Source: an uncultured Pseudomonadota bacterium
GTDB lineage: Bacteria > Pseudomonadota > Alphaproteobacteria > Rs-D84
Length of the DNA stretch: 40,141 nt
Direction: 5' to 3'
Assembly (NCBI GenBank): GCA_900313285.1
Contig: OMQP01000001.1
Span: 1 to 40,141, forward strand
Shown here one piece after another: positions 645 through 36,753 of the stretch. The stretch's first letter is position 1, and every line of letters begins with the position of its first letter. The notes under the pieces were generated by a model. It saw only the letters and a program-made list of their open reading frames with translations, did no database searches and was not told where the DNA came from. The position numbers were made by a program, and so were the translations under genes.

Positions 645-2915
645 TTAATGCAAAGGTTCCAATATTTTTATTTCTTTTGTTTGCGGATTTAAAACGCAAG
701 GATTTCCTTCGTAGCCCATAATCGCATGATGTGATGGAATTAAAAATTCAGGTAATGGTGAAGATTCACCAAGCGCGATTTTTTCCAAAAGTTTTTTCTG
801 AATAGGTGTTTTGTTCATATAATATTGTATGTTTGTCGCTTCTATTGGGCGATGATACCAACCTTGATAAATAACCAATTGTTTATCTTTTGGTAATTTC
901 ATGATATCCATTTCAGTATAAAGCCATTCTTCTTTTGGCTTTTTTACCTCTTTACCGTCTTTGTCTTTTTCAATTTTTTCTGTTTTTTTCATCCCAATCA
1001 TTTCAACAAATTTATGTGCAGTATCAAAATCATTTTGACGTAAAACAATTTTTGCAGCGGTTGTTGATATAATTGTTGATGCAGCATCTGCACCATATTT
1101 TTCCTGAATCTGATGGATGTCTTGCCCAATGATTAAATAAGATACTTTGCATCCACGACCTAAATCTGGCCCCTGAATAACCGCATCTAATTTTTGCATT
1201 TTTGGCATTTCATCTAAAGCAAACAAAACAGGGTATGGACCAACACGTTCACCATCGACAATGGTGTCTGGAGTATGTGCCAATAAATAACTCGACATCA
1301 GTTCAATGAATATAGCAGTAATAGGGTTCACTGCTTGGGCATCGACCAAGTTCACGGATAAATAAACACTTACTGGTTTAATTTTACCATCTCGCGGATC
1401 TTTCATTCCACGTAAATCAGCAAAATGGAAGTCGGAATGACTTGTTCTGTTGCGAACGGCAGCATTACGGAATATCGCTAACCCTTCAACCATTGTTGAT
1501 AATATAGATCCGCGTTCTTTATCTGGGGTATTCGCTAATTGTGTTAATTCCGATACTGCACGATGTGCGTACGAAAAACGACGCGCTTCTTCGACTGCTT
1601 CTAATAATAAATCTTTCATTGGGTCTGCCATCATAACCATTTGGTCGCCCTGACGTCTGCGTTCTTCCATTTGTTCGGCAATTGCAACCTGACTTGATGT
1701 CAACCAATCAAGAATCATAGAAAGTGATGCTTCTTTGCCATGCCATGCATCTGGAATGTGAGCCCATGTTCCAACATGTACATAATTTGTTGTATTTAAT
1801 TCACCACGTTGTAACAAAGAATATGCAGCGTACGCATTTGGATCATTCATCATGGATAAATAATAATCACCCAAAACAGCGGCGTCATCACTGTTAAATG
1901 TTCCGTTATTTATACGTGCATAAAAATAATCATCAGCTTTTGCACGTTCAACCTTGGATACAATAAAATTGACCAATCCAGATAATCCTGCGCGTCCAGT
2001 GTTCGCCCAGTGCGGATCTGCATTTGCGCCTTTTGCGTCTGGAACCAGAACTTTGCAAATGGCATCGATATACAAATCGCGTTGTTCTGGATTATACGGA
2101 ACATGTTCAGGTGACAATGGATTCCATGATGGGTAATATATACCACGTTCTGGTTCGTCCTGACCCGCCCAATTCATAATAAATACAGGACCTATAGTTG
2201 CACGATATGCAGAAGTTTTTTGTTTTAATTCTGGTTTTGGATCGTTAATAATCATGGATACCCCATCACAGTCCAAAATAGTTGGAACTATAACGCCGGT
2301 TGTTTTACCAGTTCCTGGAGGTGCAACGCACAAGGCAGACAAACATTCATCCATCATTAATGGTGTATCTTTACCCTTGTACTTGAAATACCCCAATACC
2401 ATCATGAAACCATGGAATAAACCTTCTTTGTTTTTGAAATCTGCAGCCATTTGTTTAATATCATCGACGGTTGCTTTGCGGGAAGATTTTTCATCGTAAT
2501 TGTCTTTGCCAGCCGGGTTAAATTCGGCCTTTAATGTATCGTCAACCAAGAAATAATATGCGATTATTGGTAATAATGGTGTTATGGACGCAATGTCTGG
2601 GTGTTGCATAGTGCGTGCAATCCAATATGGTATTTCTGCTATAACAGACATACCAAGCGTCATAAACATATTCTTTATATATATAATAACCCAATGTTGT
2701 GTGGCAATTCCCCATCCATAACGCCATATATGTTCAACAGCAAAAGACAGCCCAAACGCGAATGCGCATATCAACCAAATACCGACATTCCAGCGCATAT
2801 TCCAAAATTTACGAGCCACAGGTGCCTGTTCGTGTTCTTTGTATGCGCTTGATTCAAAGATCTTTAAACCTTTGCCTTTGCCACTGCTAGAGAAAATGTT
2901 GAACTTTATTGCCAT
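645..2915 (-). CDS. type IV secretion coupling protein (VirD4/TraG-family T4CP)
   Basis: 756 aa with N-terminal TM helices. Walker A is CVAPPGTGKTTGVIVPT, followed by IINDPKPE and ..WNPL. The Walker B region is LFALDEMPKM. IIGQDIHQIQEKYG..RQNDFDTA matches the VirD4/TraG Q-x-x-Q-x-x-x-YG signature. Confidence 0.8.
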   Translation of the reverse strand: MAIKFNIFSSSGKGKGLKIFESSAYKEHEQAPVARKFWNMRWNVGIWLICAFAFGLSFAVEHIWRYGWGIATQHWVIIYIKNMFMTLGMSVIAEIPYWIARTMQHPDIASITPLLPIIAYYFLVDDTLKAEFNPAGKDNYDEKSSRKATVDDIKQMAADFKNKEGLFHGFMMVLGYFKYKGKDTPLMMDECLSALCVAPPGTGKTTGVIVPTILDCDGVSMIINDPKPELKQKTSAYRATIGPVFIMNWAGQDEPERGIYYPSWNPLSPEHVPYNPEQRDLYIDAICKVLVPDAKGANADPHWANTGRAGLSGLVNFIVSKVERAKADDYFYARINNGTFNSDDAAVLGDYYLSMMNDPNAYAAYSLLQRGELNTTNYVHVGTWAHIPDAWHGKEASLSMILDWLTSSQVAIAEQMEERRRQGDQMVMMADPMKDLLLEAVEEARRFSYAHRAVSELTQLANTPDKERGSILSTMVEGLAIFRNAAVRNRTSHSDFHFADLRGMKDPRDGKIKPVSVYLSVNLVDAQAVNPITAIFIELMSSYLLAHTPDTIVDGERVGPYPVLFALDEMPKMQKLDAVIQGPDLGRGCKVSYLIIGQDIHQIQEKYGADAASTIISTTAAKIVLRQNDFDTAHKFVEMIGMKKTEKIEKDKDGKEVKKPKEEWLYTEMDIMKLPKDKQLVIYQGWYHRPIEATNIQYYMNKTPIQKKLLEKIALGESSPLPEFLIPSHHAIMGYEGNPCVLNPQTKEIKILEPLH

Positions 2916-4352: not shown

Positions 4353-5315
4353 ATGAAAAAAGCAAAAAACACAAAAAAAGTACAACCAGCAACAAAGAAA
4401 ATCGTTGCAAAAGAACCATGCTGTGCCAGCAGCGTTTGGTCGTGGACGATTTATGTTTATTGGTTTATTATCTTGTTCTTTATTGCGATAACTTTTTATA
4501 TTATTGGACGCAGTCATGAATTTTTGCATCCTGCACCAAGAAATGTTGTTGTCACAGAAGAAGCTTTAATACAACCTGATGATTATATCGCTTCTGCAAA
4601 AGAAAAATTGATTGCTGGCAATATTGAGGAAGCAATTACAGAATTAAATGCTGCGGTTGATGCAAATGCATCTTCTAATCTGTATGCTTTTCGTGGTGAA
4701 GCATATATGCAAACAGGGGAATATCAAAAAGCATTGGAAGATTTTGATTCTGCCATTGAAATTGACGGTATGAACGCGGTTGCTTTCTATGACAGATCGT
4801 TGTTGAATACACGTCTTGAAAATTATGAAGCTGCATTAGCAGATATAAATAACGCTTTGGCTGCACAATCTATGAAGCCATCTGATATTTTGAATATGCG
4901 TAATTTATATGCAAAACGTGGTCAATTGAATTTATGGTTGAAAAATTGGCAGGGGGCAATCGCTGATTATACAAATTCACTTGCACGTTCAGAAGGCAGT
5001 GTTTCTGCAAATGTTTATGCTGAACGTGCAGAAGCGTACACTGCGATGGGCGATTATGAAAGCGCGGTCAATGATTACACTTCTGCTGTTCGTATAATCA
5101 GTGAACAAATCCAGGCAGCACCAACCCAAGAAGAACGTGAAATGCAATCAAGCAATGCGATGGCTTATTTCGAAAAATCTGCTGCATTGAATTTGAATTT
5201 GGGTAAAACAGATGCGGCAAAGACAGATTTAGAATCTGCATTTGCTATCGCTGTTGCTCTGAATGATGAAGAGAGTATCGAAAGAATTCAAAATTTAATA
5301 AATGGTTTGAATTAG
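4353..5315 (+). CDS. membrane-anchored TPR-repeat protein
   Basis: Basic N-terminus, one TM helix (WSWTIYVYWFIILFFIAITFYIIG), then repeated A-x-x-D-Y/F-x-x-A-I/L TPR-like units. SD gagggag lies upstream. Confidence 0.6.
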   Translation: MKKAKNTKKVQPATKKIVAKEPCCASSVWSWTIYVYWFIILFFIAITFYIIGRSHEFLHPAPRNVVVTEEALIQPDDYIASAKEKLIAGNIEEAITELNAAVDANASSNLYAFRGEAYMQTGEYQKALEDFDSAIEIDGMNAVAFYDRSLLNTRLENYEAALADINNALAAQSMKPSDILNMRNLYAKRGQLNLWLKNWQGAIADYTNSLARSEGSVSANVYAERAEAYTAMGDYESAVNDYTSAVRIISEQIQAAPTQEEREMQSSNAMAYFEKSAALNLNLGKTDAAKTDLESAFAIAVALNDEESIERIQNLINGLN

Positions 5316-5316
5316 T

Positions 5317-5348
5317 AAAAAAATCCGCCAATACGGCGGATTTTTTTT
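5317..5348 (+). terminator. rho-independent terminator after the TPR gene
   Basis: aaaaaaATCCGCCaatacGGCGGATtttttttt: GC-rich stem plus a T-run. Confidence 0.75.
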
Positions 5349-5375
5349 GACTTTTGTTTTTTCTTGTAATAAAAT
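5347..5375 (+). promoter_or_regulatory. sigma70-like promoter P1 (TTGACT-17-TAAAAT)
   Basis: -35 at 5347-5352 and -10 at 5370-5375. The expected +1 falls on A5382, which is the A of the mini-ORF ATG. Confidence 0.4.
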
Positions 5376-5381
5376 ACGGAC

Positions 5382-5438
5382 ATGTTTTATAAGTTATTTA
5401 TCTTCACAGCTACAACTACAACCCCTTTGGGGGTCTAG
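5382..5438 (+). CDS. candidate Thr-rich leader peptide upstream of thrS (MFYKLFIFTATTTTPLGV)
   Basis: ATG 5382, TAG 5436-5438. Codons 9-14 are ACA GCT ACA ACT ACA ACC. No SD. The ORF is below the ORF-track size cutoff. Confidence 0.4.
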   Translation: MFYKLFIFTATTTTPLGV

Positions 5439-5447
5439 ATTTCTATA

Positions 5448-5476
5448 TTGCGATTATTTTTCGCACGTACTATAAT
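5448..5476 (+). promoter_or_regulatory. promoter-like site P2 (TTGCGA-17-TATAAT) upstream of thrS
   Basis: -35 at 5448-5453 and a perfect -10 at 5471-5476. The site overlaps the hairpin UGCGA-N7-UCGCA. Confidence 0.4.
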
Positions 5477-5523
5477 AAGCAAGCAATTTAATAAAATTTA
5501 TAAAATAAAAAAGAAGGTTAATT

Positions 5524-7257
5524 ATGTCTTATCCTATTGAAATAATCCGTCATTCATTGGCACATGTGATGGCGGCAGCTGTGCAAAAATTACATCCTGA
5601 TGTGAAATTTGCAGGTGGTCCTGCAATTGAAAACGGTTTCTATTATGATTTTGATACAGAATACCGTTTCAGCGAAGAAGATTTTGCAGCTATTGAAAAA
5701 GAAATGAAATCTTTGATTAAATCTGATGGTCGTTTTGACAGACGTGAAATATCGTTAGATGAAGCCAAAGAATTATTTAAAGACCAACCATATAAAATGG
5801 AATGGTTGAATGAATATGATGCAAATGGCGAAGTATTATCTGTTTATTCTTTCCGTGATTTTACAGATCTTTGCCGTGGTCCACACGTTGCGTCTTCTAA
5901 AGATTTACCAAAAGATGGTTTCAAAATAAGAAGTGTTGCAGGTGCATATTGGAAAGGCGATTCGAAAAACAAAATGTTACAACGTATTTATGTTGATGCA
6001 TTTGAAAGCGCAGAAGCATTGGAAGAATTTTTGAAAATGCAGGAAGAAGCGGCTGCGCGTGACAATCGTAAACTGGGTAAAGATATGGATTTGTTCCATT
6101 TTGAACCAGAATATGCCCCAGGTGCTGTTTTTTGGCATGACAAAGGATATAAAATTTATCGTAAATTAATTGAATATATTCGCGCACGTCAGGAAAAGGC
6201 AGGGTATTTTGAAATATCAACGCCTTCTGTGATGGACAGATGTTTATGGGAAAAATCAGGACATTGGGCAAAATATGGTGCGCACAATTATTCTGGTACA
6301 ACCCAAGATGGCAAAGTTTTCTGTGTGAAACCTATGTCTTGTCCTGGCGGCATGTTGGTATTTGGTAATGGTTTGAAATCATATAAAGATTTGCCATTGT
6401 ATTTGGCAGAATTTGGTAAAGTAAATCGTTACGAAGCTGCAGGTGCGTTGGCTGGTTTGATGCGTGTTCGTGAATTTACTCAAGACGATGCCCATATCTT
6501 TTGTACGGAAGATCAGTTGGAAGATGAAGTTGTAAAAATTTTACGTTTCATCAAAGATATTTATGGGAAATTTGGTTTTGATAAAATCACGATGAAATTA
6601 GCAACGCGTCCATTGTCTGAATTCCGTATAGGAAGTGATGAAGTTTGGGATAAAGCGGAAGGCGCGCTTAAAAACGCGTTGGAAAAGAACGGAATCGCAT
6701 ACGAGATTGCAGAAAATGACGCTGCGTTCTATGGACCAAAAATAGACAACTATTTAAAAGATTCTATGGGACGTGTATGGCAATGTGGTACGGTCCAATT
6801 GGATATGAATTTGCCAGAAAGATTTGATTTATCTTATATTGGCGAAGATGGCGAAAAACATCGTCCAATTATGTTGCATCGTGCAATGTTAGGATCTATT
6901 GAAAGATTTATGGGAATATTGCTTGAATCAACGGGTGGGGCATTACCATTATGGTTGTCACCAGAACCGGTGGTTGTCGTTCCTGTATCTGAAAAATATA
7001 AAGATTATGCGGACGAAGTTGTTTCATCTCTGAAAGAATCAGGTGTAAATGCACGTGGTGATTTGCGTGATGAAAAAGTGAATTATAAAGTTCGTGAATT
7101 ATCATTGTCAAAAACACCAATCATCGCAGTTGTCGGTGAAAAAGAAATGGCAGATAAATCGGTTACGTTGCGTTATCTTGGCAAAGAAGGTCAGGAAGTT
7201 AAATCACTGGCTGAATTTGTTGAATATATGAAAAACGCGATTAAGATGCCGTTATAA
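5524..7257 (+). CDS. thrS: threonyl-tRNA synthetase lacking the N-terminal TGS domain
   Basis: 577 aa. It starts in the editing domain (IEIIRHSLAHVMAAAV..GPAIENGFYYDFD). Class II core motifs and the anticodon-binding C-terminus are present. SD gaagg. An in-frame TAA 15 nt upstream (5506-5508) excludes a longer N-terminus. Confidence 0.93.
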   Translation: MSYPIEIIRHSLAHVMAAAVQKLHPDVKFAGGPAIENGFYYDFDTEYRFSEEDFAAIEKEMKSLIKSDGRFDRREISLDEAKELFKDQPYKMEWLNEYDANGEVLSVYSFRDFTDLCRGPHVASSKDLPKDGFKIRSVAGAYWKGDSKNKMLQRIYVDAFESAEALEEFLKMQEEAAARDNRKLGKDMDLFHFEPEYAPGAVFWHDKGYKIYRKLIEYIRARQEKAGYFEISTPSVMDRCLWEKSGHWAKYGAHNYSGTTQDGKVFCVKPMSCPGGMLVFGNGLKSYKDLPLYLAEFGKVNRYEAAGALAGLMRVREFTQDDAHIFCTEDQLEDEVVKILRFIKDIYGKFGFDKITMKLATRPLSEFRIGSDEVWDKAEGALKNALEKNGIAYEIAENDAAFYGPKIDNYLKDSMGRVWQCGTVQLDMNLPERFDLSYIGEDGEKHRPIMLHRAMLGSIERFMGILLESTGGALPLWLSPEPVVVVPVSEKYKDYADEVVSSLKESGVNARGDLRDEKVNYKVRELSLSKTPIIAVVGEKEMADKSVTLRYLGKEGQEVKSLAEFVEYMKNAIKMPL

Positions 7258-25575: not shown

Positions 25576-27102
25576 TTATCCCAATTTTTGTTTTAATAAA
25601 TCGCTTACCATTGCAGGGTTGGCCTGGCCGTGTGTCGCCTTCATAACATTACCAACAAAGAATCCAAGTAATCCAACTTTGCCAGATTTATACTGTTCAA
25701 CCTGGGACGGATTATTTTTGATAACTTCATCAACAGCGCTTTCAATCGCTCCAGTGTCGGTAATTTGTTTCATACCATATTTATCGGCAATTTCATGAAT
25801 TGTGCCACGTTCGCCATCCAACATTTTGATAAATATTTCTTTGGCTTGTTTACCGTTGATTTCGTTTGCAGCAATCATATCGACCAATTCAGAAATATTT
25901 TCTGGGGTAATAATACGTGGAGCATCAGGATCTGTATTTTCTTTGATTTCATTTGTGATATCAAAGTTTTCAGGATGTGCAAACAATTCAGAAATCATCC
26001 AATTCGCAATTGGTTTTGCACGTTCTTTTTTACCATCAACAGCAGTATCATACCATTTTGAAATATCTGTTGTTTCTGTTAAGCGATTTGCATCATATTC
26101 TGATAAACAGTATTCGTTGATGTATCTTGCACGTGTTGCAGATGGCAATTCTGGCATTGTTTTACGAATGCGTTCAATTTCTTCATCAGTAATTTCCAAT
26201 TCCAATAAATCTGGATCTGGAAAATAACGATAATCAAGGGCATCTTCTTTGCTGCGCATGACAGTGGTTATTCCTTCATCTGGTAAATAACGCATCGTAT
26301 TGCGTTCAATTATTCCACCGTTTTCAAGTATTTCTATTTGACGTTTTGCTTCGTATTCAATTGCGGCCTTGATAAATTTAAACGAAACCATGTTTTTGAT
26401 TTCACAACGTTCGTTAAAGTATGTTGCACCAACTGGACGAACAGATACGTTTACGTCAGCACGCATAGAGCCTTCTTCCATATTTGCTTTTGAAACACCC
26501 AGTGCACGTGCAATTTCGCGGACTTCACGTAAGTATCTTTCTGCTTCATCAGGGGATGTTATATATGAATTATTTTCATTATTCTTAACATCTATAAAAT
26601 TTACTATTTCTAATAAAGCAACACCAGTACGGTTGTAATCTGCCATAGATTTTGTTGGATGCATATCATGTTTTAATTTGCCGGCATCTTGTTCCAAATG
26701 TGCACGTTCAATTAAAATCTTTTTTGGATTACCGTCATCCCCGATAATTTCAATCCAACCACGTCCAACAACAGGTGGTTCTTCAACAGGTTGTGAAATC
26801 TGATACCCCTGGGGCAGGTCAGGGTAAAAATACTGTTTACGGGCAAATTTAGAATGTTTTGAAATTTCTGCGTTTATTCCTAAACCAAATTTAATTGCTT
26901 GTTCAACACAGTGTTTATTTAAAACTGGCAACATTCCTGGCATTGCAACGTCAACCATGCAAGCCTGGGTGTTTGGGGCAATTGTTGGATTATAGTTTGC
27001 TGATGCGCCGCTGAATAATTTCGAATTAGAAAGAACCTCTATGTGTATTTCTAATGCTATAACTAATTCCCAATCTGTTGTTTTGCCTTTTATCGTAAAC
27101 AT
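25576..27102 (-). CDS. gatB: Asp/Glu-tRNA amidotransferase subunit B
   Basis: 508 aa. WELVIALEIHIEV N-terminus, LEQDAGK motif and a C-terminal YqeY-like tail. Confidence 0.93.
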   Translation of the reverse strand: MFTIKGKTTDWELVIALEIHIEVLSNSKLFSGASANYNPTIAPNTQACMVDVAMPGMLPVLNKHCVEQAIKFGLGINAEISKHSKFARKQYFYPDLPQGYQISQPVEEPPVVGRGWIEIIGDDGNPKKILIERAHLEQDAGKLKHDMHPTKSMADYNRTGVALLEIVNFIDVKNNENNSYITSPDEAERYLREVREIARALGVSKANMEEGSMRADVNVSVRPVGATYFNERCEIKNMVSFKFIKAAIEYEAKRQIEILENGGIIERNTMRYLPDEGITTVMRSKEDALDYRYFPDPDLLELEITDEEIERIRKTMPELPSATRARYINEYCLSEYDANRLTETTDISKWYDTAVDGKKERAKPIANWMISELFAHPENFDITNEIKENTDPDAPRIITPENISELVDMIAANEINGKQAKEIFIKMLDGERGTIHEIADKYGMKQITDTGAIESAVDEVIKNNPSQVEQYKSGKVGLLGFFVGNVMKATHGQANPAMVSDLLKQKLG

Positions 27103-27156
27103 TTTTATTTTTCCTTGCTTTTTGTTTTTTTATACTATATTATGTCCCTCACGGAT

Positions 27157-27232
27157 GGCTAGATAGCTCAGTTGGTAGAGCAAGGGACTGAAAATCCCTG
27201 TGTCAGTAGTTCGATTCTACTTCTAGCCACCA
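27157..27232 (+). tRNA. tRNA-Phe (anticodon GAA), CCA encoded
   Basis: Manual cloverleaf: GGCTAGA/TCTAGCC acceptor stem, AGGGA-CTGAAAA-TCCCT anticodon arm, AGTAG-TTCGATT-CTACT T arm. 76 nt. Confidence 0.9.
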
Positions 27233-27263
27233 TTTTTTTTACCAACTTTTTTTTAATCATTTT

Positions 27264-28733
27264 TTATTCACCCATAACAGACGTTGGACGATTATCTATT
27301 GCTGCAGCGGTTTCTATATGTTTTGCCAATTGCAAAACCTGCATATCTGCAAATCTTGGTCCAACAACTTGCATCCCGAGTGGTAAACCGTTTGTGGCCA
27401 AACCACATGGAACAGAAACCGATGGTATACCAGCCAAATTCATTGCAACTGTGAATAAATCAAGTGCATAGTATTCAAGTGGTGTTAAATCTGAATCCAA
27501 TGGCATTGCTGTTCCGGCAGATGACGGACAAATAATCAAATCACATTGTTCAAATGCAGATTTAAAACTGTCTGCAATCATACGACGAACGCGTGCCGCT
27601 TGCATGAAATATACTTCATAAGATTCACTTGATAATACTGCCGTACCAATAATCATACGACGTTGAACTTCTTCGCCAAAACCGGCAGCGCGTGTCTTTT
27701 TATATGTATCAATTAAATCTTCGCCTTCGACGCGCAGACCATATTTCATACCATCATAACGTGCCAGGTTTGAAGAAGCTTCTGCAGGGGCGATAATATA
27801 ATATGCCGCCAATGCGTCCAAGATATTTGGAATAGATACTTCGACAATTTCGGCACCCATAGATTTCAAATCTGAGATTCGTTTTTCAAACAGATTTTTC
27901 ATGTCGTCCGAAATTTTCACAGAATTAAATTCTTTGATGATACCAACACGTAATTTTTTGCCATCACCCAAAATAGGTTGTAAATTACCATCGCTTTCAA
28001 AGCATGCCTTTGGTGAAGATGTTGAATCTTTTGGATCATGTCCAGCCATTGCTGATAACATCAACGCAGCGTCTTCAACGGTACGTGCAATTGGACCCGG
28101 TGTGTCCAAACTGGATGCAAAAGCAACACACCCCCAACGTGAACATAAACCATATGTTGGTTTCATACCAACCAAACCAGTCATTGCAGATGGAAAACGA
28201 ATTGAACCACCTGTATCTGTTCCAGTTGCCGCAATTGCAAGACCACCGGCAACAGCACTGGTTGAACCACCAGATGAACCACCAGCGGTTAATCTTTTTT
28301 CCATTTGCCATGGATTAACAGGGGCACCAAAGAAAGATGTCTTTGAAAATGTTCCCATTGCAAATTCATCCAGGTTTGCCTTGCCCAATAAAACTGTTCC
28401 GGCATCAATTAATTTTTGTGAAATGGTTGATTCGTATTCTGGAACAAAGTTTTCAAGCATACGCGATGCAGCGGTAGTGCGAATGCCACGTGTTGCAAAT
28501 AAATCTTTCATTGCAATTGGCATACCGTCCAATGGTAATGCAGAGCCATTTGCATAACGTTCGTCAGATTCTGTCGCGTCTTTCAAAGCACGTTCAGGTG
28601 TTGTTGTAATATAACAATTTAAATCTTTGCCAAATTTTTCAATACGGTCAAGATATGCACGTGTTAATTCTGTTACAGAAATTTCACGTGATTTCAATTT
28701 TTGTAAAGCTTCTTTAATTGTTAAATTTATCAT
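27264..28733 (-). CDS. gatA: Glu-tRNA(Gln) amidotransferase subunit A
   Basis: 489 aa. The amidase signature is GGSSGGSTSAVAGG..TDTGGSIRFP. Confidence 0.93.
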   Translation of the reverse strand: MINLTIKEALQKLKSREISVTELTRAYLDRIEKFGKDLNCYITTTPERALKDATESDERYANGSALPLDGMPIAMKDLFATRGIRTTAASRMLENFVPEYESTISQKLIDAGTVLLGKANLDEFAMGTFSKTSFFGAPVNPWQMEKRLTAGGSSGGSTSAVAGGLAIAATGTDTGGSIRFPSAMTGLVGMKPTYGLCSRWGCVAFASSLDTPGPIARTVEDAALMLSAMAGHDPKDSTSSPKACFESDGNLQPILGDGKKLRVGIIKEFNSVKISDDMKNLFEKRISDLKSMGAEIVEVSIPNILDALAAYYIIAPAEASSNLARYDGMKYGLRVEGEDLIDTYKKTRAAGFGEEVQRRMIIGTAVLSSESYEVYFMQAARVRRMIADSFKSAFEQCDLIICPSSAGTAMPLDSDLTPLEYYALDLFTVAMNLAGIPSVSVPCGLATNGLPLGMQVVGPRFADMQVLQLAKHIETAAAIDNRPTSVMGE

Positions 28734-34164: not shown

Positions 34165-35088
34165 ATGTTCCAAAAAACATGTGTTTTTGCAGTGATTGCT
34201 GGTTTGTTAAGTGCCGCGTGTGCCGCAGACGATGGCGTGCAACAGATTGTTACTTCTGAAGTTTTCTATGATGCTGGTCAAACAGTTGAAGAAGTGGCCG
34301 AAGAACCAGAACAATTTGTTCAATCAGAAGAAGTTGTTTACGAAGAAGTAGAAGCCCAAGATTATGTCGCAGGGGAAGTTGATTCTGATGTTCCAACATG
34401 GCCATTGGCGGGATCCGAAGCGGATGTTGAAATTGCATGCGCTGGACGTGAATGTGCTGAAAATAAAATTGTTACCAAAGTTGGTTCTGGATTGGTAATT
34501 GAAAACAATATCAATACCAAGGGCACAGGTTGGACGGGGGGTCCAAACATTATGAATGGTACACAAATTCCTGCAGGATTTGATTATGAATGTGCAAATA
34601 ATGCCGAAATGCCTTTGATGCGTCGTGAAATGATGGAAGATGATGGTGGCAGTGTTTTGGCAATGTCACGCAGCGGACATAAAAATTGCAATAAACAGGC
34701 AGATTCATATGCTGTGTTTGCACAACGTGCAGGGTTTAATCCTGAAAAAACATGCAATAAATCCTCTGGTAATGACAGTGAAATTTCTGTAAATGAATAT
34801 GTTGATGAAGAAGCACCTGCACCAGTTCAAGATCAGGTTCGTTCATGGGTTGTTGCAAATGGTCAAACATTACGTGAAGTTTTACAAAGCTGGTGCGATA
34901 AAGAAGGTTGGGATTTGGTTTGGACAACATCTCGTGAATATCCAATCGAGGCAAGCGCTGTATTCAAAGGACGTTTTGTAGACGTCGCATCTGCGTTGGT
35001 TCGTAATTTTGAACGTGCAACACCGATTCCATATGCAAAGTTTTACAAAGGTAATCGTGTGTTGGTAATTTCGACCACAGAAGAATAA
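34165..35088 (+). CDS. PilL/TcpQ-like protein (type IVb pilus secretin-associated)
   Basis: Signal peptide, possibly a lipoprotein (LLSAAC). Acidic linker. The C-terminal SWVVANGQTLREVLQSWCDKEGWDLVWTTSREYPIEASAVFKGRFVDVASALVRNF matches the TcpQ/PilL C-terminal domain as I remember it. Confidence 0.6.
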   Translation: MFQKTCVFAVIAGLLSAACAADDGVQQIVTSEVFYDAGQTVEEVAEEPEQFVQSEEVVYEEVEAQDYVAGEVDSDVPTWPLAGSEADVEIACAGRECAENKIVTKVGSGLVIENNINTKGTGWTGGPNIMNGTQIPAGFDYECANNAEMPLMRREMMEDDGGSVLAMSRSGHKNCNKQADSYAVFAQRAGFNPEKTCNKSSGNDSEISVNEYVDEEAPAPVQDQVRSWVVANGQTLREVLQSWCDKEGWDLVWTTSREYPIEASAVFKGRFVDVASALVRNFERATPIPYAKFYKGNRVLVISTTEE

Positions 35089-35121
35089 AATATACCCGAC
35101 AAAGGACGGTAGGAGAAAAAC

Positions 35122-36753
35122 ATGAAGTTTCATTTTAATATTGGTTTAATTTGTGCTTTGACAAGTTTGATTCTTGGCGGTTGTACTTTGCATCAGTCTG
35201 CGAAAGTTTCTGCAGAGGTAGATCAGAATTTTGTTAATGCATATGAAGCTTTTGAAATGTCAAAGGCCCCCCGTGCCAAGGTTGCAAGTGGCGATACGGT
35301 TTCTATGTCCGAAGGGGTGTGGTTGGGAAACAAATCAACCGTGTTAGAACATAAAAATAAATTACCATCTAAATTTGAAACAGATACAGGTATAACAATT
35401 TTATTAAATGAACCTGTTACATTACAGGTTTTGGCAAATGACATAAATTCTATTACTGGTATTCCTGTAAAAATCGATAGTCAGGTTGATAATGAAAAGT
35501 TAAAAAAGACAGTTGATGTTGCGTATACTGGAAAATTGTCTGGTTTGCTTTCACAAATTGCAACAGATTTAGATTTGCTTTGGTATTATAACAAAGATTC
35601 TATTGTGTTCTATGAAACAGAAACCAGAACATATACTTTGTATGCGCTGGGGACAGATGTGTCATACCAATCGTCTGTTCAAACAGACAGTGGAAATCAC
35701 GTGTCATTAGAATCTACATTAAAAGAATGGGATGAAGTTGAATCAACAATAAATTCTATTATAAATAATTCCAAAAATGCACAATTTACTGTATCTCGCA
35801 GTTTGGGAACAATAACCGTCACTGCATCGCCATCGATTTTGAATCGTGTTGGGGAATATATCGCAAAACAAAATAAACGTTTGTCTCAATTAGTGACAAT
35901 CGATGTCAAGGTTTTACAGGTATCATTAACAAATGAATCTGCGTTTGGATTGAATTTGGCTGCTGCGATAAATTCTGCATCGGGATTAAATATCGTTGCA
36001 AATCCAAAAAATAATTTAGCAACAACTGAAGCGTCCTCTATGAATGTTGCAGTGTTATCTAATGCTGTATCTGCGGCAACCGGGGCCACACACATAGATG
36101 CGTCTGGTAAAGTTGTCGAAGGGGCATATACTAATGAACAGATTAATAATGGTTCAATGGCAAGAATCGCTGGAACAAATGCTTTGATAGAAGCATTGGC
36201 AAAGCAGGGCAAGGTTTCATTGGTGACAAACGTTGGTGTTACAACACGTAATAACCGTGTCGCACCGGTTACAAATACAAAAACAACAGGATACATCAAA
36301 CGTTTTGAATCAAGAACATTCACAACCGTAGAATCAAGTACTGTTGACCAGGATGATTTGGAAACAGGATTTTCAATGCAATTATTACCGAACGTTTTGG
36401 AAAATGGAAAAATATTATTGTTGTTCAAAATGTCTGTTCGTGAATTGTTGAAAATGGCAACACAAACTATCGGTGCGGTTACATTACAATTACCAGAAGT
36501 TGAAGAACGTTCCTTTATGCAGGAAGTTATCATGGAATCTGGTCAAATGTTGGTTGTTTCCGGATTTGAAAAACAGAGCAACAACGACACAAGATATGGT
36601 ATTGGGGATGCTGATTTCATGGCGTTGTCTGGATCACGTGATACTGCTGCAACCCGTGAAGTGTTGGTTGTTATCTTAACACCTCAGGTTTTGGTCAGTC
36701 CAATGGATGCCGAACGCAGTATCCAACAACATTGGGGTGCACCATTAAATTAG
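35122..36753 (+). CDS. PilN/BfpB/TcpC-type lipoprotein secretin (type IVb)
   Basis: Lipobox LILGGC. 543 aa. The C-terminal secretin domain is GFSMQLLPNVLENGKILLLF..QEVIMESGQMLVVSGFEKQ..REVLVVILTPQVL. Confidence 0.7.
   Translation: MKFHFNIGLICALTSLILGGCTLHQSAKVSAEVDQNFVNAYEAFEMSKAPRAKVASGDTVSMSEGVWLGNKSTVLEHKNKLPSKFETDTGITILLNEPVTLQVLANDINSITGIPVKIDSQVDNEKLKKTVDVAYTGKLSGLLSQIATDLDLLWYYNKDSIVFYETETRTYTLYALGTDVSYQSSVQTDSGNHVSLESTLKEWDEVESTINSIINNSKNAQFTVSRSLGTITVTASPSILNRVGEYIAKQNKRLSQLVTIDVKVLQVSLTNESAFGLNLAAAINSASGLNIVANPKNNLATTEASSMNVAVLSNAVSAATGATHIDASGKVVEGAYTNEQINNGSMARIAGTNALIEALAKQGKVSLVTNVGVTTRNNRVAPVTNTKTTGYIKRFESRTFTTVESSTVDQDDLETGFSMQLLPNVLENGKILLLFKMSVRELLKMATQTIGAVTLQLPEVEERSFMQEVIMESGQMLVVSGFEKQSNNDTRYGIGDADFMALSGSRDTAATREVLVVILTPQVLVSPMDAERSIQQHWGAPLN

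Follow-up and report, generated by a model that had tools for sequence, protein, structure and literature searches.

Leader-peptide attenuation has precedents in pheM-pheST and in the thr, his, and trp leaders. Known control of thrS is through a tRNA-mimic translational operator in Escherichia coli and a T-box in Firmicutes. Leaderless leader peptides have been described in Streptomyces and in mycobacteria. In Streptomyces lividans TK24, a leaderless thrL of 18 amino acids was annotated from RNA-seq data in front of thrS, and the same report annotates the leaderless pairs leuL-leuS, trpL-trpS, and alaL-alaS (PMC8079986). For mycobacteria, Canestrari et al. describe leaderless poly-Cys sORFs that act as attenuators (bioRxiv 10.1101/834739). 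Leaderless mRNAs are reported to be frequent and efficiently translated in alphaproteobacteria (PMC4117421).

Here we describe a conserved leader in front of thrS of Candidatus Enterousia, a gut alphaproteobacterium of the order Rs-D84 with a reduced genome; genomes of this type are described as smaller than 1 Mb, with little spare DNA (PMC12306168). The window, that is, the whole stretch of DNA analysed, is 40,141 nucleotides long. The features of the locus, all on the + strand, are as follows.

5317-5347, +, intrinsic terminator ending the upstream gene for a TPR protein (stem of 13 bp, then a T-run)
5347-5375, +, promoter P1, TTGACT-17-TAAAAT (motif scan; equivalent in 33/33 species)
5382-5438, +, leader ORF (thrL-like), candidate leaderless, 18 codons, MFYKLFIFTATTTTPLGV (sequence; kept in 33/33 species)
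5406-5423, +, Thr codon run ACA GCT ACA ACT ACA ACC, which would sense how far tRNA(Thr) is charged (codon conservation)
5421-5434, +, hairpin hp1, ACCCC-UUUG-GGGGU, loop 5426-5429 (stem invariant in 33/33 species)
5439-5447, +, pyrimidine-rich linker AUUUCUAUA between hp1 and hp2 (alignment)
5448-5476, +, internal promoter P2, TTGCGA-17-TATAAT (motif scan; conserved in 33/33 species)
5449-5453 and 5461-5465, +, the two arms of hairpin hp2, UGCGA-N7-UCGCA (covariation)
5477-5523, +, thrS 5' UTR, A-rich, G-poor, and unstructured (63% A, 4% G)
5524-7257, +, thrS, threonyl-tRNA synthetase, 577 amino acids (Pfam tRNA_SAD, tRNA-synt_2b, and HGTP_anticodon)

The mini-ORF that the preliminary description had noticed can be read directly in the sequence, from the ATG at 5382 to the TAG ending at 5438: ATG (5382-5384) TTT TAT AAG TTA TTT ATC TTC ACA GCT ACA ACT ACA ACC CCT TTG GGG GTC TAG (5436-5438). 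Five of the six codons at 5406-5423 encode Thr, as stated there. The bases before the ATG are ACGGAC and do not form a purine-rich Shine-Dalgarno (SD) sequence, which bears out the earlier remark that the mini-ORF lacks one, and the A of the ATG is the seventh base past the -10 hexamer of P1, a promoter that our scan found again at 5347-5375. The T-run of the upstream terminator overlaps the -35 box of P1, and this terminator insulates the leader against read-through from the upstream gene. At the other end of the leader, thrS has its own SD sequence, GAAGG at 5513-5517.

Three counts in the window set the leader ORF well apart from chance, with conservation as the decisive point. Among about 80,000 six-codon windows (six frames of the 40-kb window) only two contain at least five ACN codons, and the leader run is one of them. 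The leader ORF alone among the 30 mini-ORFs adjoining promoters in the window has at least five identical residues out of six; the rest have at most three. The motif CCCC-N3-4-GGGG occurs a single time in the 40 kb, and hp1 as a copy of a dispersed repeat is ruled out by the same count. The 40-kb window contained no other amino-acid-run mini-ORF. No synthetase was present among the ten largest ORFs at 11.4-36.8 kb of the window or within 10 kb past its right end.

The comparison among relatives covered 33 species-level genomes of the Enterousia/Rs-D84 clade, with ThrRS 77-93% identical and a mean column identity of 60% in the leader. The complete unit in front of thrS, which comprises P1, the start codon with its reading frame, the series of Thr codons, hp1, and a stop codon just past hp1, is kept in 33/33 species, so that the conservation of the ATG, the Thr run, and the hairpins upstream of related thrS genes, proposed earlier as the first check, is indeed found. 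The outcome named beforehand as refuting, a lack of conservation of the mini-ORF or of its Thr codons among relatives, is thus strongly contradicted. A Thr-rich sORF was absent in front of thrS at all 44 outgroup alphaproteobacterial loci, which came from a sister gut clade (about 60% ThrRS identity) and from Pelagibacterales, Rhodobacterales, Hyphomicrobiales, and others. Presence in every relative and absence from every outgroup locus support the original reading of a Thr-sensing leader peptide. Among the relatives, the leader ORF has 17, 18, 19, or 20 codons with 4 to 8 Thr per ORF, always starts with ATG, and has the core M..[FY]..FF-T(4-7)-P-[LAT]-G-V-stop (33/33 species). Its length differs by whole codons only, and in every species the ATG and the ACC of hp1 share one frame. 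The Thr codons vary synonymously (ACA 93, ACT 46, ACC 38, ACG 8), and the Phe codons swap between TTT and TTC. This synonymous variation, together with the whole-codon length changes, the constant ATG, and the preserved frame, suggests that the leader ORF is translated. Counted back from the hairpin, codons 0 to -5 encode Thr in 33, 33, 30, 27, 25, and 24 of the 33 species. The comparison shows selection on the ORF with its frame and Thr run, on both hairpins, and on both promoters, as well as linkage of the ORF to thrS. The mini-ORF very probably lets the cell sense charged Thr-tRNA and set the amount of ThrRS, and we consider it highly likely that the leader is a Thr-charging sensor for thrS.

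The start of the P1 transcript is expected at the A of the ATG, which would make the transcript leaderless. Equivalents of P1, with the consensus TTGAyw-17(16-18)-TAnnAT, lie 6 to 10 nt ahead of the ATG and without an SD sequence in all 33 species. Two hexamers were scored one base out of register in four species, and another hexamer was called for species L011; in register, all gaps are 6 to 10 nt. With a predicted start no more than some 3 nt from the AUG, the promoter geometry agrees in 33/33 species, as does the ATG start codon.

The first hairpin, a CCCC/GGGG stem overlapping the last codons, was recovered with the boundaries A5421-CCCC and GGGG-U5434. It lies wholly inside the ORF: its 5' arm consists of the last Thr codon and the Pro codon, and in the window the stop codon follows 1 nt past the stem. 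Across species the consensus is ACCCC-N3-4-GGGGU, which lies in the final codons for Thr, Pro, and Gly, and the folding energy ranges from -8.6 to -10.4 kcal/mol (mean about -9.6). The stem lengthens to a bulged stem of 8 to 9 bp in about 20 species, and the loop varies (UUUG, GUUG, CGCG, UGCG, CACG, or UUUU). hp1 is not a canonical terminator, and genuine terminators nearby carry long U-runs. With a AUUUCUAUU-like tail, hp1 passes a loose terminator rule in 20/33 species, and those of L024 and L029 were flagged as terminator-like; the hp1 of the window, which was not flagged, and those of 12 other species fail even the loose U-tract rule. The preliminary description was therefore correct in its caveat that the window has no canonical attenuator of a hairpin plus a U-run. 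In the linker at 5439-5447 two T columns are invariant, and the 10 nt after the hp1 stem contain on average 5.5 U; the linker may be a weak U-tract or a pause region. The distance from hp1 to the TTGC of P2 is 11 to 15 nt in 32/33 species.

The second hairpin had been proposed as UGCGA-N7-UCGCA at 5449-5465, and its stem covaries among the relatives. Counting from the G of TTGC as 0, position 2, the third pair of the stem, is occupied by G-C in 26 species and by A-U in 6, and the fourth pair (position 3) occurs as four Watson-Crick pair types. Closing U.G pairs, which are valid on the + strand only, are found in 21 cases. The loop is 3 to 9 nt long and is not conserved, and a U-run after hp2 is not found in all species. 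hp2 RNA is predicted to occur in P1 transcripts only. As hp2 covaries as + strand RNA beyond hp1, P1 transcripts must run past hp1.

The second promoter-like site downstream of the mini-ORF, at 5448-5476, also exists as first described and is conserved in 33/33 species, as TTGCnn with a spacer of 17 (28 species), 16 (3), or 18 (2) bp and a TATAAT-like hexamer. The caution that AT-rich DNA easily generates such hexamers does not hold for this site, because its fixed spacing in all 33 species speaks against an artefact. The spacing stays constant while the hp2 loop changes in length and the -10 element lies at a variable distance (4 to 10 nt) from hp2, and the 8 species with the weaker -10 sequence AATAAT all have a TGn just upstream (extended -10). 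Since the geometry is kept whatever the form of hp2, and weak hexamers are made up for by an extended -10, we read P2 as a real promoter, and it is probably the basal thrS promoter. Its conservation with fixed spacing means that thrS is not transcribed through the leader alone, and part of thrS expression is predicted to escape the sensor. We considered whether the conserved UAUAAU might pair with the start region of thrS and rejected this, since the pairing is too weak (about -1.7 kcal/mol) and shows no cognate specificity; a spacing to TTGC fixed at 17 bp, and a TGn that compensates for weaker hexamers, indicate a DNA promoter element rather than an RNA pairing.

A well-conserved P2 downstream of the ORF would also be expected if the mini-ORF only adjoined thrS and yielded a separate product, either a peptide or a trans-acting RNA comparable to rnTrpL/peTrpL of Sinorhizobium, with thrS transcribed from P2 alone. 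hp1 could then terminate a transcript of about 60 nt, and trans roles of leader RNAs and peptides have reported precedents (PMC6614838, PMC7298713). We regard this explanation as very improbable. An unrelated product would hardly explain why a conserved series of Thr codons, cognate to the enzyme, precedes thrS, the covariation of hp2 takes P1 transcripts past hp1, and the scarcity of spare DNA in genomes below 1 Mb (PMC12306168) leaves little room for an unconnected element. Moreover, the upstream neighbour gene differs between species (several unrelated clusters) while the mini-ORF remains beside thrS, and this linkage thus outlasts the changes of neighbour. The idea that the leader is a relic of a lost TGS-coding region was considered and set aside: the ThrRS encoded here has no N-terminal TGS domain, and the leader peptide is unlike TGS N-termini (MVAIKLPD...).

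Searches for known regulatory structures gave little. Rfam at gathering thresholds found no known RNA family other than two tRNAs in the whole 40-kb window. A T-box had no match in the window at these thresholds, nor in 5250-5600 at E values up to 10. In the latter region the Leu_leader model matched the minus strand below threshold (E=0.0003), and Phe_leader and Trp_leader were not significant; the weak matches to these three models stem solely from the upstream terminator hairpin. A mimic of the tRNA(Thr) anticodon was also rejected, the loops of hp1 and hp2 being variable and containing no conserved Thr anticodon-like triplet. Both hairpins lie more than 55 nt from the thrS SD sequence, and the UTR beside it is unstructured.

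The preliminary description had suggested folding the leader for mutually exclusive structures. Neither alifold nor duplex tests between leader segments yielded any: alifold of the leader alignment returned hp1 alone, and cognate-specific complementarity, as expected for an antiterminator, was found in 0/28 pairs of 8 leader segments. The comparison of cognate and non-cognate duplexes recovered hp2 as the positive control (arms -7.05 against -5.32 kcal/mol, p<0.0002). A long-range pairing of the 5' end with the UTR in the minimum free energy fold of the window was dismissed (z=-0.95, not conserved). No leader segment showed cognate complementarity to the thrS ribosome binding site (RBS), and sequestration of this site, lifted by a stalled ribosome, was rejected as well, with a predicted unpaired probability of the SD-AUG of 0.45 in the free leader and 0.46 when the footprint of a stalled ribosome was masked (Wilcoxon p=0.48).

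Our best explanation is that the leader is a cis-regulator that uses a stalling ribosome. At P1, RNA polymerase would initiate on the A of the ATG, and a 70S ribosome would load on the 5'-terminal AUG and read the 17 to 20 codons that end in the Thr run. hp1, made of the last Thr codon ACC and the Pro and Gly codons, would act with the pyrimidine-rich tract as a pause or a weak intrinsic terminator. Under a shortage of Thr-tRNA(Thr), the ribosome would stall with the Thr codons beside the hairpin in its A site and its footprint over the 5' arm of hp1; hp1 would not form, and P1 transcripts would extend into thrS. When Thr-tRNA(Thr) is ample, the ribosome would pass the run and exit at the stop past hp1, and hp1 would form and attenuate the P1 transcripts. 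P2, 3' of the attenuator, would give unregulated basal thrS mRNA. Thr conservation peaks at the codons abutting hp1 (33, 33, 30, and 27 of 33), and by standard footprint dimensions a ribosome with its A site at these codons would extend over the 5' arm of hp1. Stalling would thus presumably increase thrS expression, and hp1 would work by termination or pausing. hp2 has no part in this occlusion of hp1. Taking sensor and output jointly, a ribosome-mediated, Thr-specific cis-regulator of thrS on a leaderless leader peptide seems to us an evenly balanced proposition; that the output runs through direct occlusion of hp1 we would rate somewhat below that.

There is a kinetic difficulty in the occlusion of hp1. 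A ribosome tightly coupled to RNA polymerase would block hp1 even with ample Thr, and one that stalled as early as the first Thr codon would fall short of it. It is thus biological logic, and not the sequence, that gives the response its assumed direction. The response could have the opposite polarity, as in pyrBI: only a ribosome keeping pace with RNA polymerase would melt or block hp1 and permit read-through, and a stall at the first Thr codons would lead to termination of P1 transcripts at low Thr-tRNA, with P2 left as the basal source. By standard footprint dimensions, a ribosome halted at codon -5, the first of the Thr run, falls short of the hairpin core. The ORF always spans hp1, and in 32/33 species its stop is located -2 to +4 nt relative to the end of the stem, which is the pyrBI arrangement. 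Such a design would, however, put ThrRS under positive feedback, the reverse of every characterised synthetase control (T-box, pheST, and E. coli thrS), and a general sensor of coupling has no specific need for Thr codons, whose conservation is strongest beside the hairpin and not at the start of the run. We therefore find this polarity improbable.

A stalled ribosome could also act without hp1 as the main element. In a Rho-dependent version, similar to tnaC, it would mask the G-free, C-rich Thr tract and its flank as a Rho loading site and prevent termination in the untranslated 85-nt spacer, and after a quick exit of the ribosome Rho would terminate at pauses at hp1 and hp2. The leader contains neither a canonical terminator nor an antiterminator, and C makes up 31% and G 5% of the stretch of about 34 nt that runs from the Phe codons through the Thr run to ACCCC, the genome having about 35% GC. 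The UTR is A/C-rich, G-poor, and unstructured, and ACG is strongly avoided among the leader Thr codons (8/185 compared with 157/533 in thrS). This mechanism has the expected direction, as a stall gives more expression, and does not depend on tight timing. We nevertheless judge it unlikely, if worth serious attention, because the C-rich tract is short, with only 3 to 7 YC dinucleotides, and masking of a Rho site would not need the invariance of hp1 or its exact place at the end of the ORF. The avoidance of ACG could come equally from the choice of tRNA isoacceptor or from avoiding a G that would pair with the CCCC arm.

Regulation could instead be post-transcriptional. A ribosome on the Thr run, at most about 45 nt from the 5' end, would guard the P1 mRNA from 5'-end-dependent decay, as in ermC, or alter RNase cleavage in the AU-rich linkers flanking hp1 and hp2, and thrS mRNA would be stabilised at low Thr-tRNA. 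This would be free of the kinetic coupling problem and agrees with the lack of a predicted structural switch at the thrS RBS; in many species a single-stranded stretch resembling AAUUUCU comes after each hairpin, and hp2 could serve as a 5' stabiliser of processed thrS mRNA. However, no particular sequence feature demands such a mechanism, which is purely speculative, the second UUUCU tract is absent from the group of species L019-L027 and L035, and an ORF that runs through hp1 is left unexplained. We give it little credence.

Returning to the stalled ribosome that occludes hp1, the comparison with known systems shows which parts of this design are familiar. As in E. coli thrL-thrABC, hisL, trpL, and pheM-pheST, a short ORF rich in cognate codons lies in cis before a gene of the pathway, and the regulatory codons are in or beside the 5' arm of the first hairpin, as in classical attenuators. 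In pheM-pheST the leader-peptide principle is used at a synthetase gene, as we propose here. The differences are considerable. Classical attenuators use an SD-led ORF, whereas the ORF described here has no SD sequence and begins 6 to 10 nt past a -10 element (33/33). Their alternative 1:2, 2:3, and 3:4 hairpins with an antiterminator are absent, and in place of a GC hairpin plus U-run terminator before the gene there is only a noncanonical hp1 (loose rule, 20/33). Unlike in classical attenuators, the ORF runs through the sole attenuator-like hairpin, and a conserved promoter, P2, lies between attenuator and gene. In its most specific form, our proposal is a minimal one-hairpin attenuator, in which a stalled leaderless ribosome would occlude the only hairpin within its own last codons, or a Rho site of those codons, without an antiterminator or RBS switch and over a constitutive internal promoter. 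We put this form forward tentatively and think it rather more apt to fail than to hold. By analogy with tnaC-tnaAB, a stalled leader ribosome may mask a Rho site without an intrinsic terminator; there the stall is a ligand-arrested ribosome at the stop codon, whereas here it would be at hungry codons inside the ORF.

The mycobacterial poly-Cys sORFs resemble this leader in being leaderless, cognate-codon sORFs at the very start of the transcript, and there, too, a stalled ribosome is described as blocking an RNA structure directly without a classical terminator (bioRxiv 10.1101/834739). In that report the blocked structure sequesters a downstream RBS and the target is a biosynthetic operon (bioRxiv 10.1101/834739), whereas here no such duplex is predicted, cognate and non-cognate energies being equal, and the target is a synthetase gene. 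The S. lividans thrL-thrS pair shares with our locus the pairing of genes, the length of 18 amino acids, and the leaderless start, and its authors report one hairpin without a U-rich tract (PMC8079986). Compared by peptide alone, thrL (MKRVRPFLETTPGFVPAR) contains TTPG where the Enterousia peptide has TTTPLGV; it is actinobacterial, has two Thr only, and is described there as a single-strain annotation (PMC8079986).

The E. coli operator and the Firmicute T-box act on the same gene and respond to the state of tRNA(Thr) or ThrRS. Their features are missing here, as is the TGS part of the N-terminal region of ThrRS. The earlier suggestion that Thr-dependent leader control of thrS would be a different solution is anticipated in part by the leaderless thrL-thrS of S. 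lividans (PMC8079986) and by leader peptides at other synthetase genes. If our reading is correct, obligately host- or partner-dependent alphaproteobacteria with genomes below 1 Mb and no amino acid biosynthesis still retain a dedicated sensor of Thr-tRNA charging, in an architecture without the alternative hairpins of textbook attenuators. If, in addition, the same design precedes other synthetase genes, a ribosome-run regulon would replace protein regulators in a reduced genome. The leader of about 150 nt offers a compact natural test case for communication between a leaderless ribosome and RNA polymerase, and for the combination of an attenuated and a constitutive promoter on one essential gene. 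The comparative support found here (33 species, frame-preserving, with synonymous variation) looks far stronger than that presented for S. lividans thrL (PMC8079986), and the thrS leader would represent a third route of thrS control beside the E. coli tRNA-mimic operator and the Firmicute T-box.

Upstream of thrS, the gene for threonyl-tRNA synthetase (ThrRS), a reading of positions 4900-5800 agreed base for base with the preliminary description of the leader, which is laid out as follows.

4353-5315: gene for a TPR protein of 320 aa; its stop precedes the terminator
5317-5347: strong terminator hairpin of the TPR gene; its T-run runs into the TTGACT of P1
5347-5352: -35 hexamer TTGACT of P1, the promoter before the mini-ORF; 17-nt spacer to the -10
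5370-5375: -10 hexamer TAAAAT of P1; the mini-ORF ATG (5382) begins six bases on
5382-5438: mini-ORF of 18 codons, MFYKLFIFTATTTTPLGV; ATG at 5382, TAG at 5436-5438
5406-5423: Thr run, codons 9-14 of the mini-ORF, ACA GCT ACA ACT ACA ACC
5421-5434: hairpin hp1, A5421-CCCC / UUUG / GGGG-U5434, -8.6 kcal/mol, made of the last Thr, Pro and Gly codons
5448-5476: P2, promoter-like site TTGCGA-17-TATAAT between mini-ORF and thrS
5449-5465: hairpin hp2, UGCGA (5449-5453) / UCGCA (5461-5465), within P2
5513-5517: SD GAAGG in the A-rich thrS 5'UTR, upstream of thrS
5524-7257: thrS, 577 aa

Two tRNAs are the sole above-threshold Rfam matches in the whole window, and Rfam found no T-box or known leader family in the leader. 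Leader-family matches below threshold fall on its minus strand and stem from the terminator hairpin upstream. That terminator (region 5317-5352) is symmetric (A7-stem-T8), so that it could act in both directions, and the P1 -35 hexamer takes its first bases from the terminator's T-run, as is also the case in the relatives' loci L007, L015 and L066.

A chance origin of the mini-ORF is excluded. At least five ACN codons in six occur in 2 of about 80,000 windows (six frames of the 40-kb window), one of the two being the mini-ORF. Among 30 mini-ORFs of 8-40 codons directly after a promoter-like site, it alone has a run of at least five identical residues in six, and the window has a single copy of CCCC-N3-4-GGGG. 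When one genome per GTDB species was scanned, 80 thrS loci were obtained; 32 of them (ThrRS 77-93% identical) are in MAGs labelled Candidatus Enterousia or uncultured Alphaproteobacteria, and the others belong to distant alphaproteobacteria and to a gut sister clade with about 60% ThrRS identity. The exact ThrRS protein was also found on metagenome contigs. Enterousia are gut bacteria of the order Rs-D84 with genomes below 1 Mb and no amino-acid biosynthesis (PMC12306168).

We parsed and aligned the 260 nt before thrS across the clade of 33 species. P1, mini-ORF and hp1 are present in the same order in all 33; the conservation on which the preliminary description had staked its proposal thus holds for the ATG, the Thr run and hp1 throughout. 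P1 reads TTGAyw and TAnnAT with a spacer of 17 in nearly all species, followed 6-10 nt after the -10 hexamer by an ATG without an SD. The ORFs have 17-20 codons (26 in one species), with a hydrophobic, Phe-rich N-terminal half, then 4-7 Thr codons and Pro-[Leu/Ala/Thr/Phe]-Gly-Val before the stop. Mean column identity is only 60%, and neither the region upstream of P1 nor the interval from P2 to the SD is conserved; invariant or nearly so are the P1 hexamers, the ATG, the TT of the Phe codons, ACAACCCC...GGGGT, the linker TT, TTGC, ATAAT and the thrS start. An ORF of 8-45 codons with four Thr in six codons was found in none of the 44 other thrS loci (350 nt upstream searched). The nearest upstream genes of the clade loci fall into several unrelated clusters, indicating that the mini-ORF stays linked to thrS rather than to any adjacent gene.

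The ThrRS proteins themselves also differ. All 33 leader-bearing enzymes (L007-L038, L066 and the window, 5524-7257) start MSYPIE.. in the tRNA_SAD region, without an N-terminal TGS domain, whereas most of the 44 other loci (L039-L086) have a possible start about 67 codons (32-143) upstream, giving MVAIKLPD-like TGS N-termini. The gain of the Thr leader thus coincides with the loss of TGS.

The mini-ORF varies as a translated sequence would. Its length changes in steps of entire codons (gaps of 3, 6 or 9 nt in the alignment), the third base varies at Thr codons (ACA 93, ACT 46, ACC 38, ACG 8), TTT and TTC alternate at the Phe positions before the Thr run, and in 33/33 species the hp1 ACC shares the reading frame of the ATG. 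Leaderless initiation strongly requires AUG, in agreement with the ATG start codon of all 33. In Caulobacter and Sinorhizobium, mRNAs without a leader are common and are translated efficiently (PMC4117421). Counted from the hairpin, codons 0 to -7 are Thr in 33, 33, 30, 27, 25, 24, 8 and 3 of 33 species, so that conservation drops with distance. Of the leader Thr codons (5406-5423 and the corresponding positions in 32 loci), 4% are ACG, against 29% in the thrS genes of these loci, which leaves the Thr run almost without G.

The hp1 stem is invariant in the clade, so there is no covariation to count; its loop is free to vary, altering the encoded residue (Leu, Ala, Thr or Phe). In 32/33 species the first base of the stop codon lies at -2 to +4 nt relative to the end of the stem. 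In about 20 species hp1 is extended to UACA.ACCCC / GGGGGUGUA (about -10 kcal/mol), followed directly by AUUUCUAUUU. A simple terminator scan marks hp1 in L024 and L029, and 20/33 species pass the same rule; the window fails it, and hp1 is, as had been noted, not a canonical terminator with a U-run.

The covariation of hp2 is real. Its third stem pair (position 2, with the G of TTGC as 0) is G-C in 26 species and A-U in six, and its fourth (position 3) takes four Watson-Crick forms, A-U, C-G, G-C and U-A. There are 21 U.G closing pairs, which on the opposite strand would be C.A mismatches, and cognate arms pair at -7.05 kcal/mol versus -5.32 for shuffled partners (p<0.0002). Together these results indicate that hp2 is a plus-strand RNA structure and, consequently, that P1 transcripts reach at least past hp1. 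The preliminary description cautioned that AT-rich DNA easily generates promoter-like hexamers; for P2 this is not upheld, as a TTGCnn-N17-TATAAT-like site is found in 33/33 species (spacer 17 in 28, 16 in three, 18 in two). Its spacing is held although the loop of hp2 ranges over 3-9 nt and the interval between hp2 and the -10 over 4-10 nt, indicating a constraint on DNA geometry, and by its sequence P2 appears to be a real promoter. In eight species (L019, L021-L025, L027, L035) the -10 is the weaker AATAAT, always with TGn just upstream, which would be an extended -10 compensating the weaker hexamer. The P2 -10 hexamer ends 37-55 nt ahead of the thrS ATG, implying an unstructured 5'UTR of about 30-48 nt. 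Many species have a motif A(A/U)UUCU(A/G)U after both hairpins (window 5439-5447 and 5466-5476), as in L013 with UAAUUUCUGUA 3' of hp1 and CAAAUUUCUAUAAU 3' of hp2; the second copy is missing in the L019-L027 and L035 group. These tandem motifs might be weak U-tracts, RNase sites or a promoter feature.

The comparative data support well, at the level of sequence, a sensor in which a leaderless ribosome reads the Thr run, the last codons forming the 5' arm of hp1. By standard footprints, a ribosome would unwind RNA to about 8-11 nt past the first base of its A-site codon. If it stalled while any of Thr codons -3 to 0 was in the A site, and these are the Thr positions conserved best, it would overlap the hp1 stem, and we therefore propose that stalling keeps hp1 from forming. 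hp1 and the pyrimidine tract would attenuate P1 transcripts through weak or factor-assisted termination or pausing, P2 would supply basal expression, and a stall would raise thrS expression. This direction is argued from feedback logic and from all characterised synthetase controls, not from the sequence; a rival reading, a pyrBI-like coupling sensor, would have the opposite polarity. The non-canonical hp1 is a weak point, close coupling of translation to transcription would keep hp1 blocked under ample Thr as well, and hp2 has no place in the mechanism. Alternatively, the stalled ribosome may mask a Rho loading site; the leader tract is 31% C and 5% G, and ACG is avoided in leader Thr codons (8/185 versus 157/533 in thrS). 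The P1 mRNA could also be stabilised or processed, or the leader could yield an independent peptide or RNA product. The mutually exclusive structures for which folding had been suggested as a check did not appear: among all pairs of eight leader segments (ORF 5' half, Thr run, hp1, linker, hp2, -10 box, UTR and RBS) there is no cognate-specific complementarity, and masking the stalled-ribosome footprint leaves predicted SD-AUG accessibility of thrS unmoved (0.45 versus 0.46). The analysis thus shows no antiterminator, anti-sequestor or RBS switch.

Elsewhere in the window, gatB and gatA (Asp/Glu-tRNA amidotransferase; 25576-28733, minus strand) imply indirect charging of tRNA(Asn) and/or tRNA(Gln), and the mini-ORF scan showed no leader-like sORF before them. 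A TraG/VirD4-type type IV secretion coupling protein (645-2915, minus strand) and a TcpQ and secretin pair (34165-36753, plus strand) are components of a secretion or pilus apparatus, in an organism presumed to be partner-dependent. A longer contig from this organism (L087, 11868-13148) carries dnaA, then dnaJ and gyrB, about 1.8 kb past the right end of the window, and cumulative GC skew climbs across most of the window, so that the replication origin may lie nearby.

Among synthetase genes, pheM-pheST is an established case of a cognate leader peptide. Leader peptides were predicted for trpS and leuS in Streptomyces (PMC1262725), and one was observed before trpS in Caulobacter (PMC4117421). 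In S. lividans (PMC8079986), leaderless leader peptides are annotated before alaS, thrS, trpS and leuS; thrL there has 18 aa like the mini-ORF and is leaderless, as is predicted for the mini-ORF, with a peptide containing TTPG and a hairpin without a U-run downstream. Mycobacterial leaderless poly-Cys sORFs illustrate that a stalled ribosome can act by merely blocking RNA structure (10.1101/834739). A full-text literature search turned up no account of a leader peptide before thrS in Alphaproteobacteria or Enterousia. The leader first described is thus confirmed and its reading as a leader peptide supported; the suggestion that a Thr leader peptide at thrS is a different solution is partly anticipated by the annotated S. 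lividans thrL. The minimal architecture departs from the textbook attenuator, and the thrS leader is best read as an unusually well-conserved form of a known regulatory principle.
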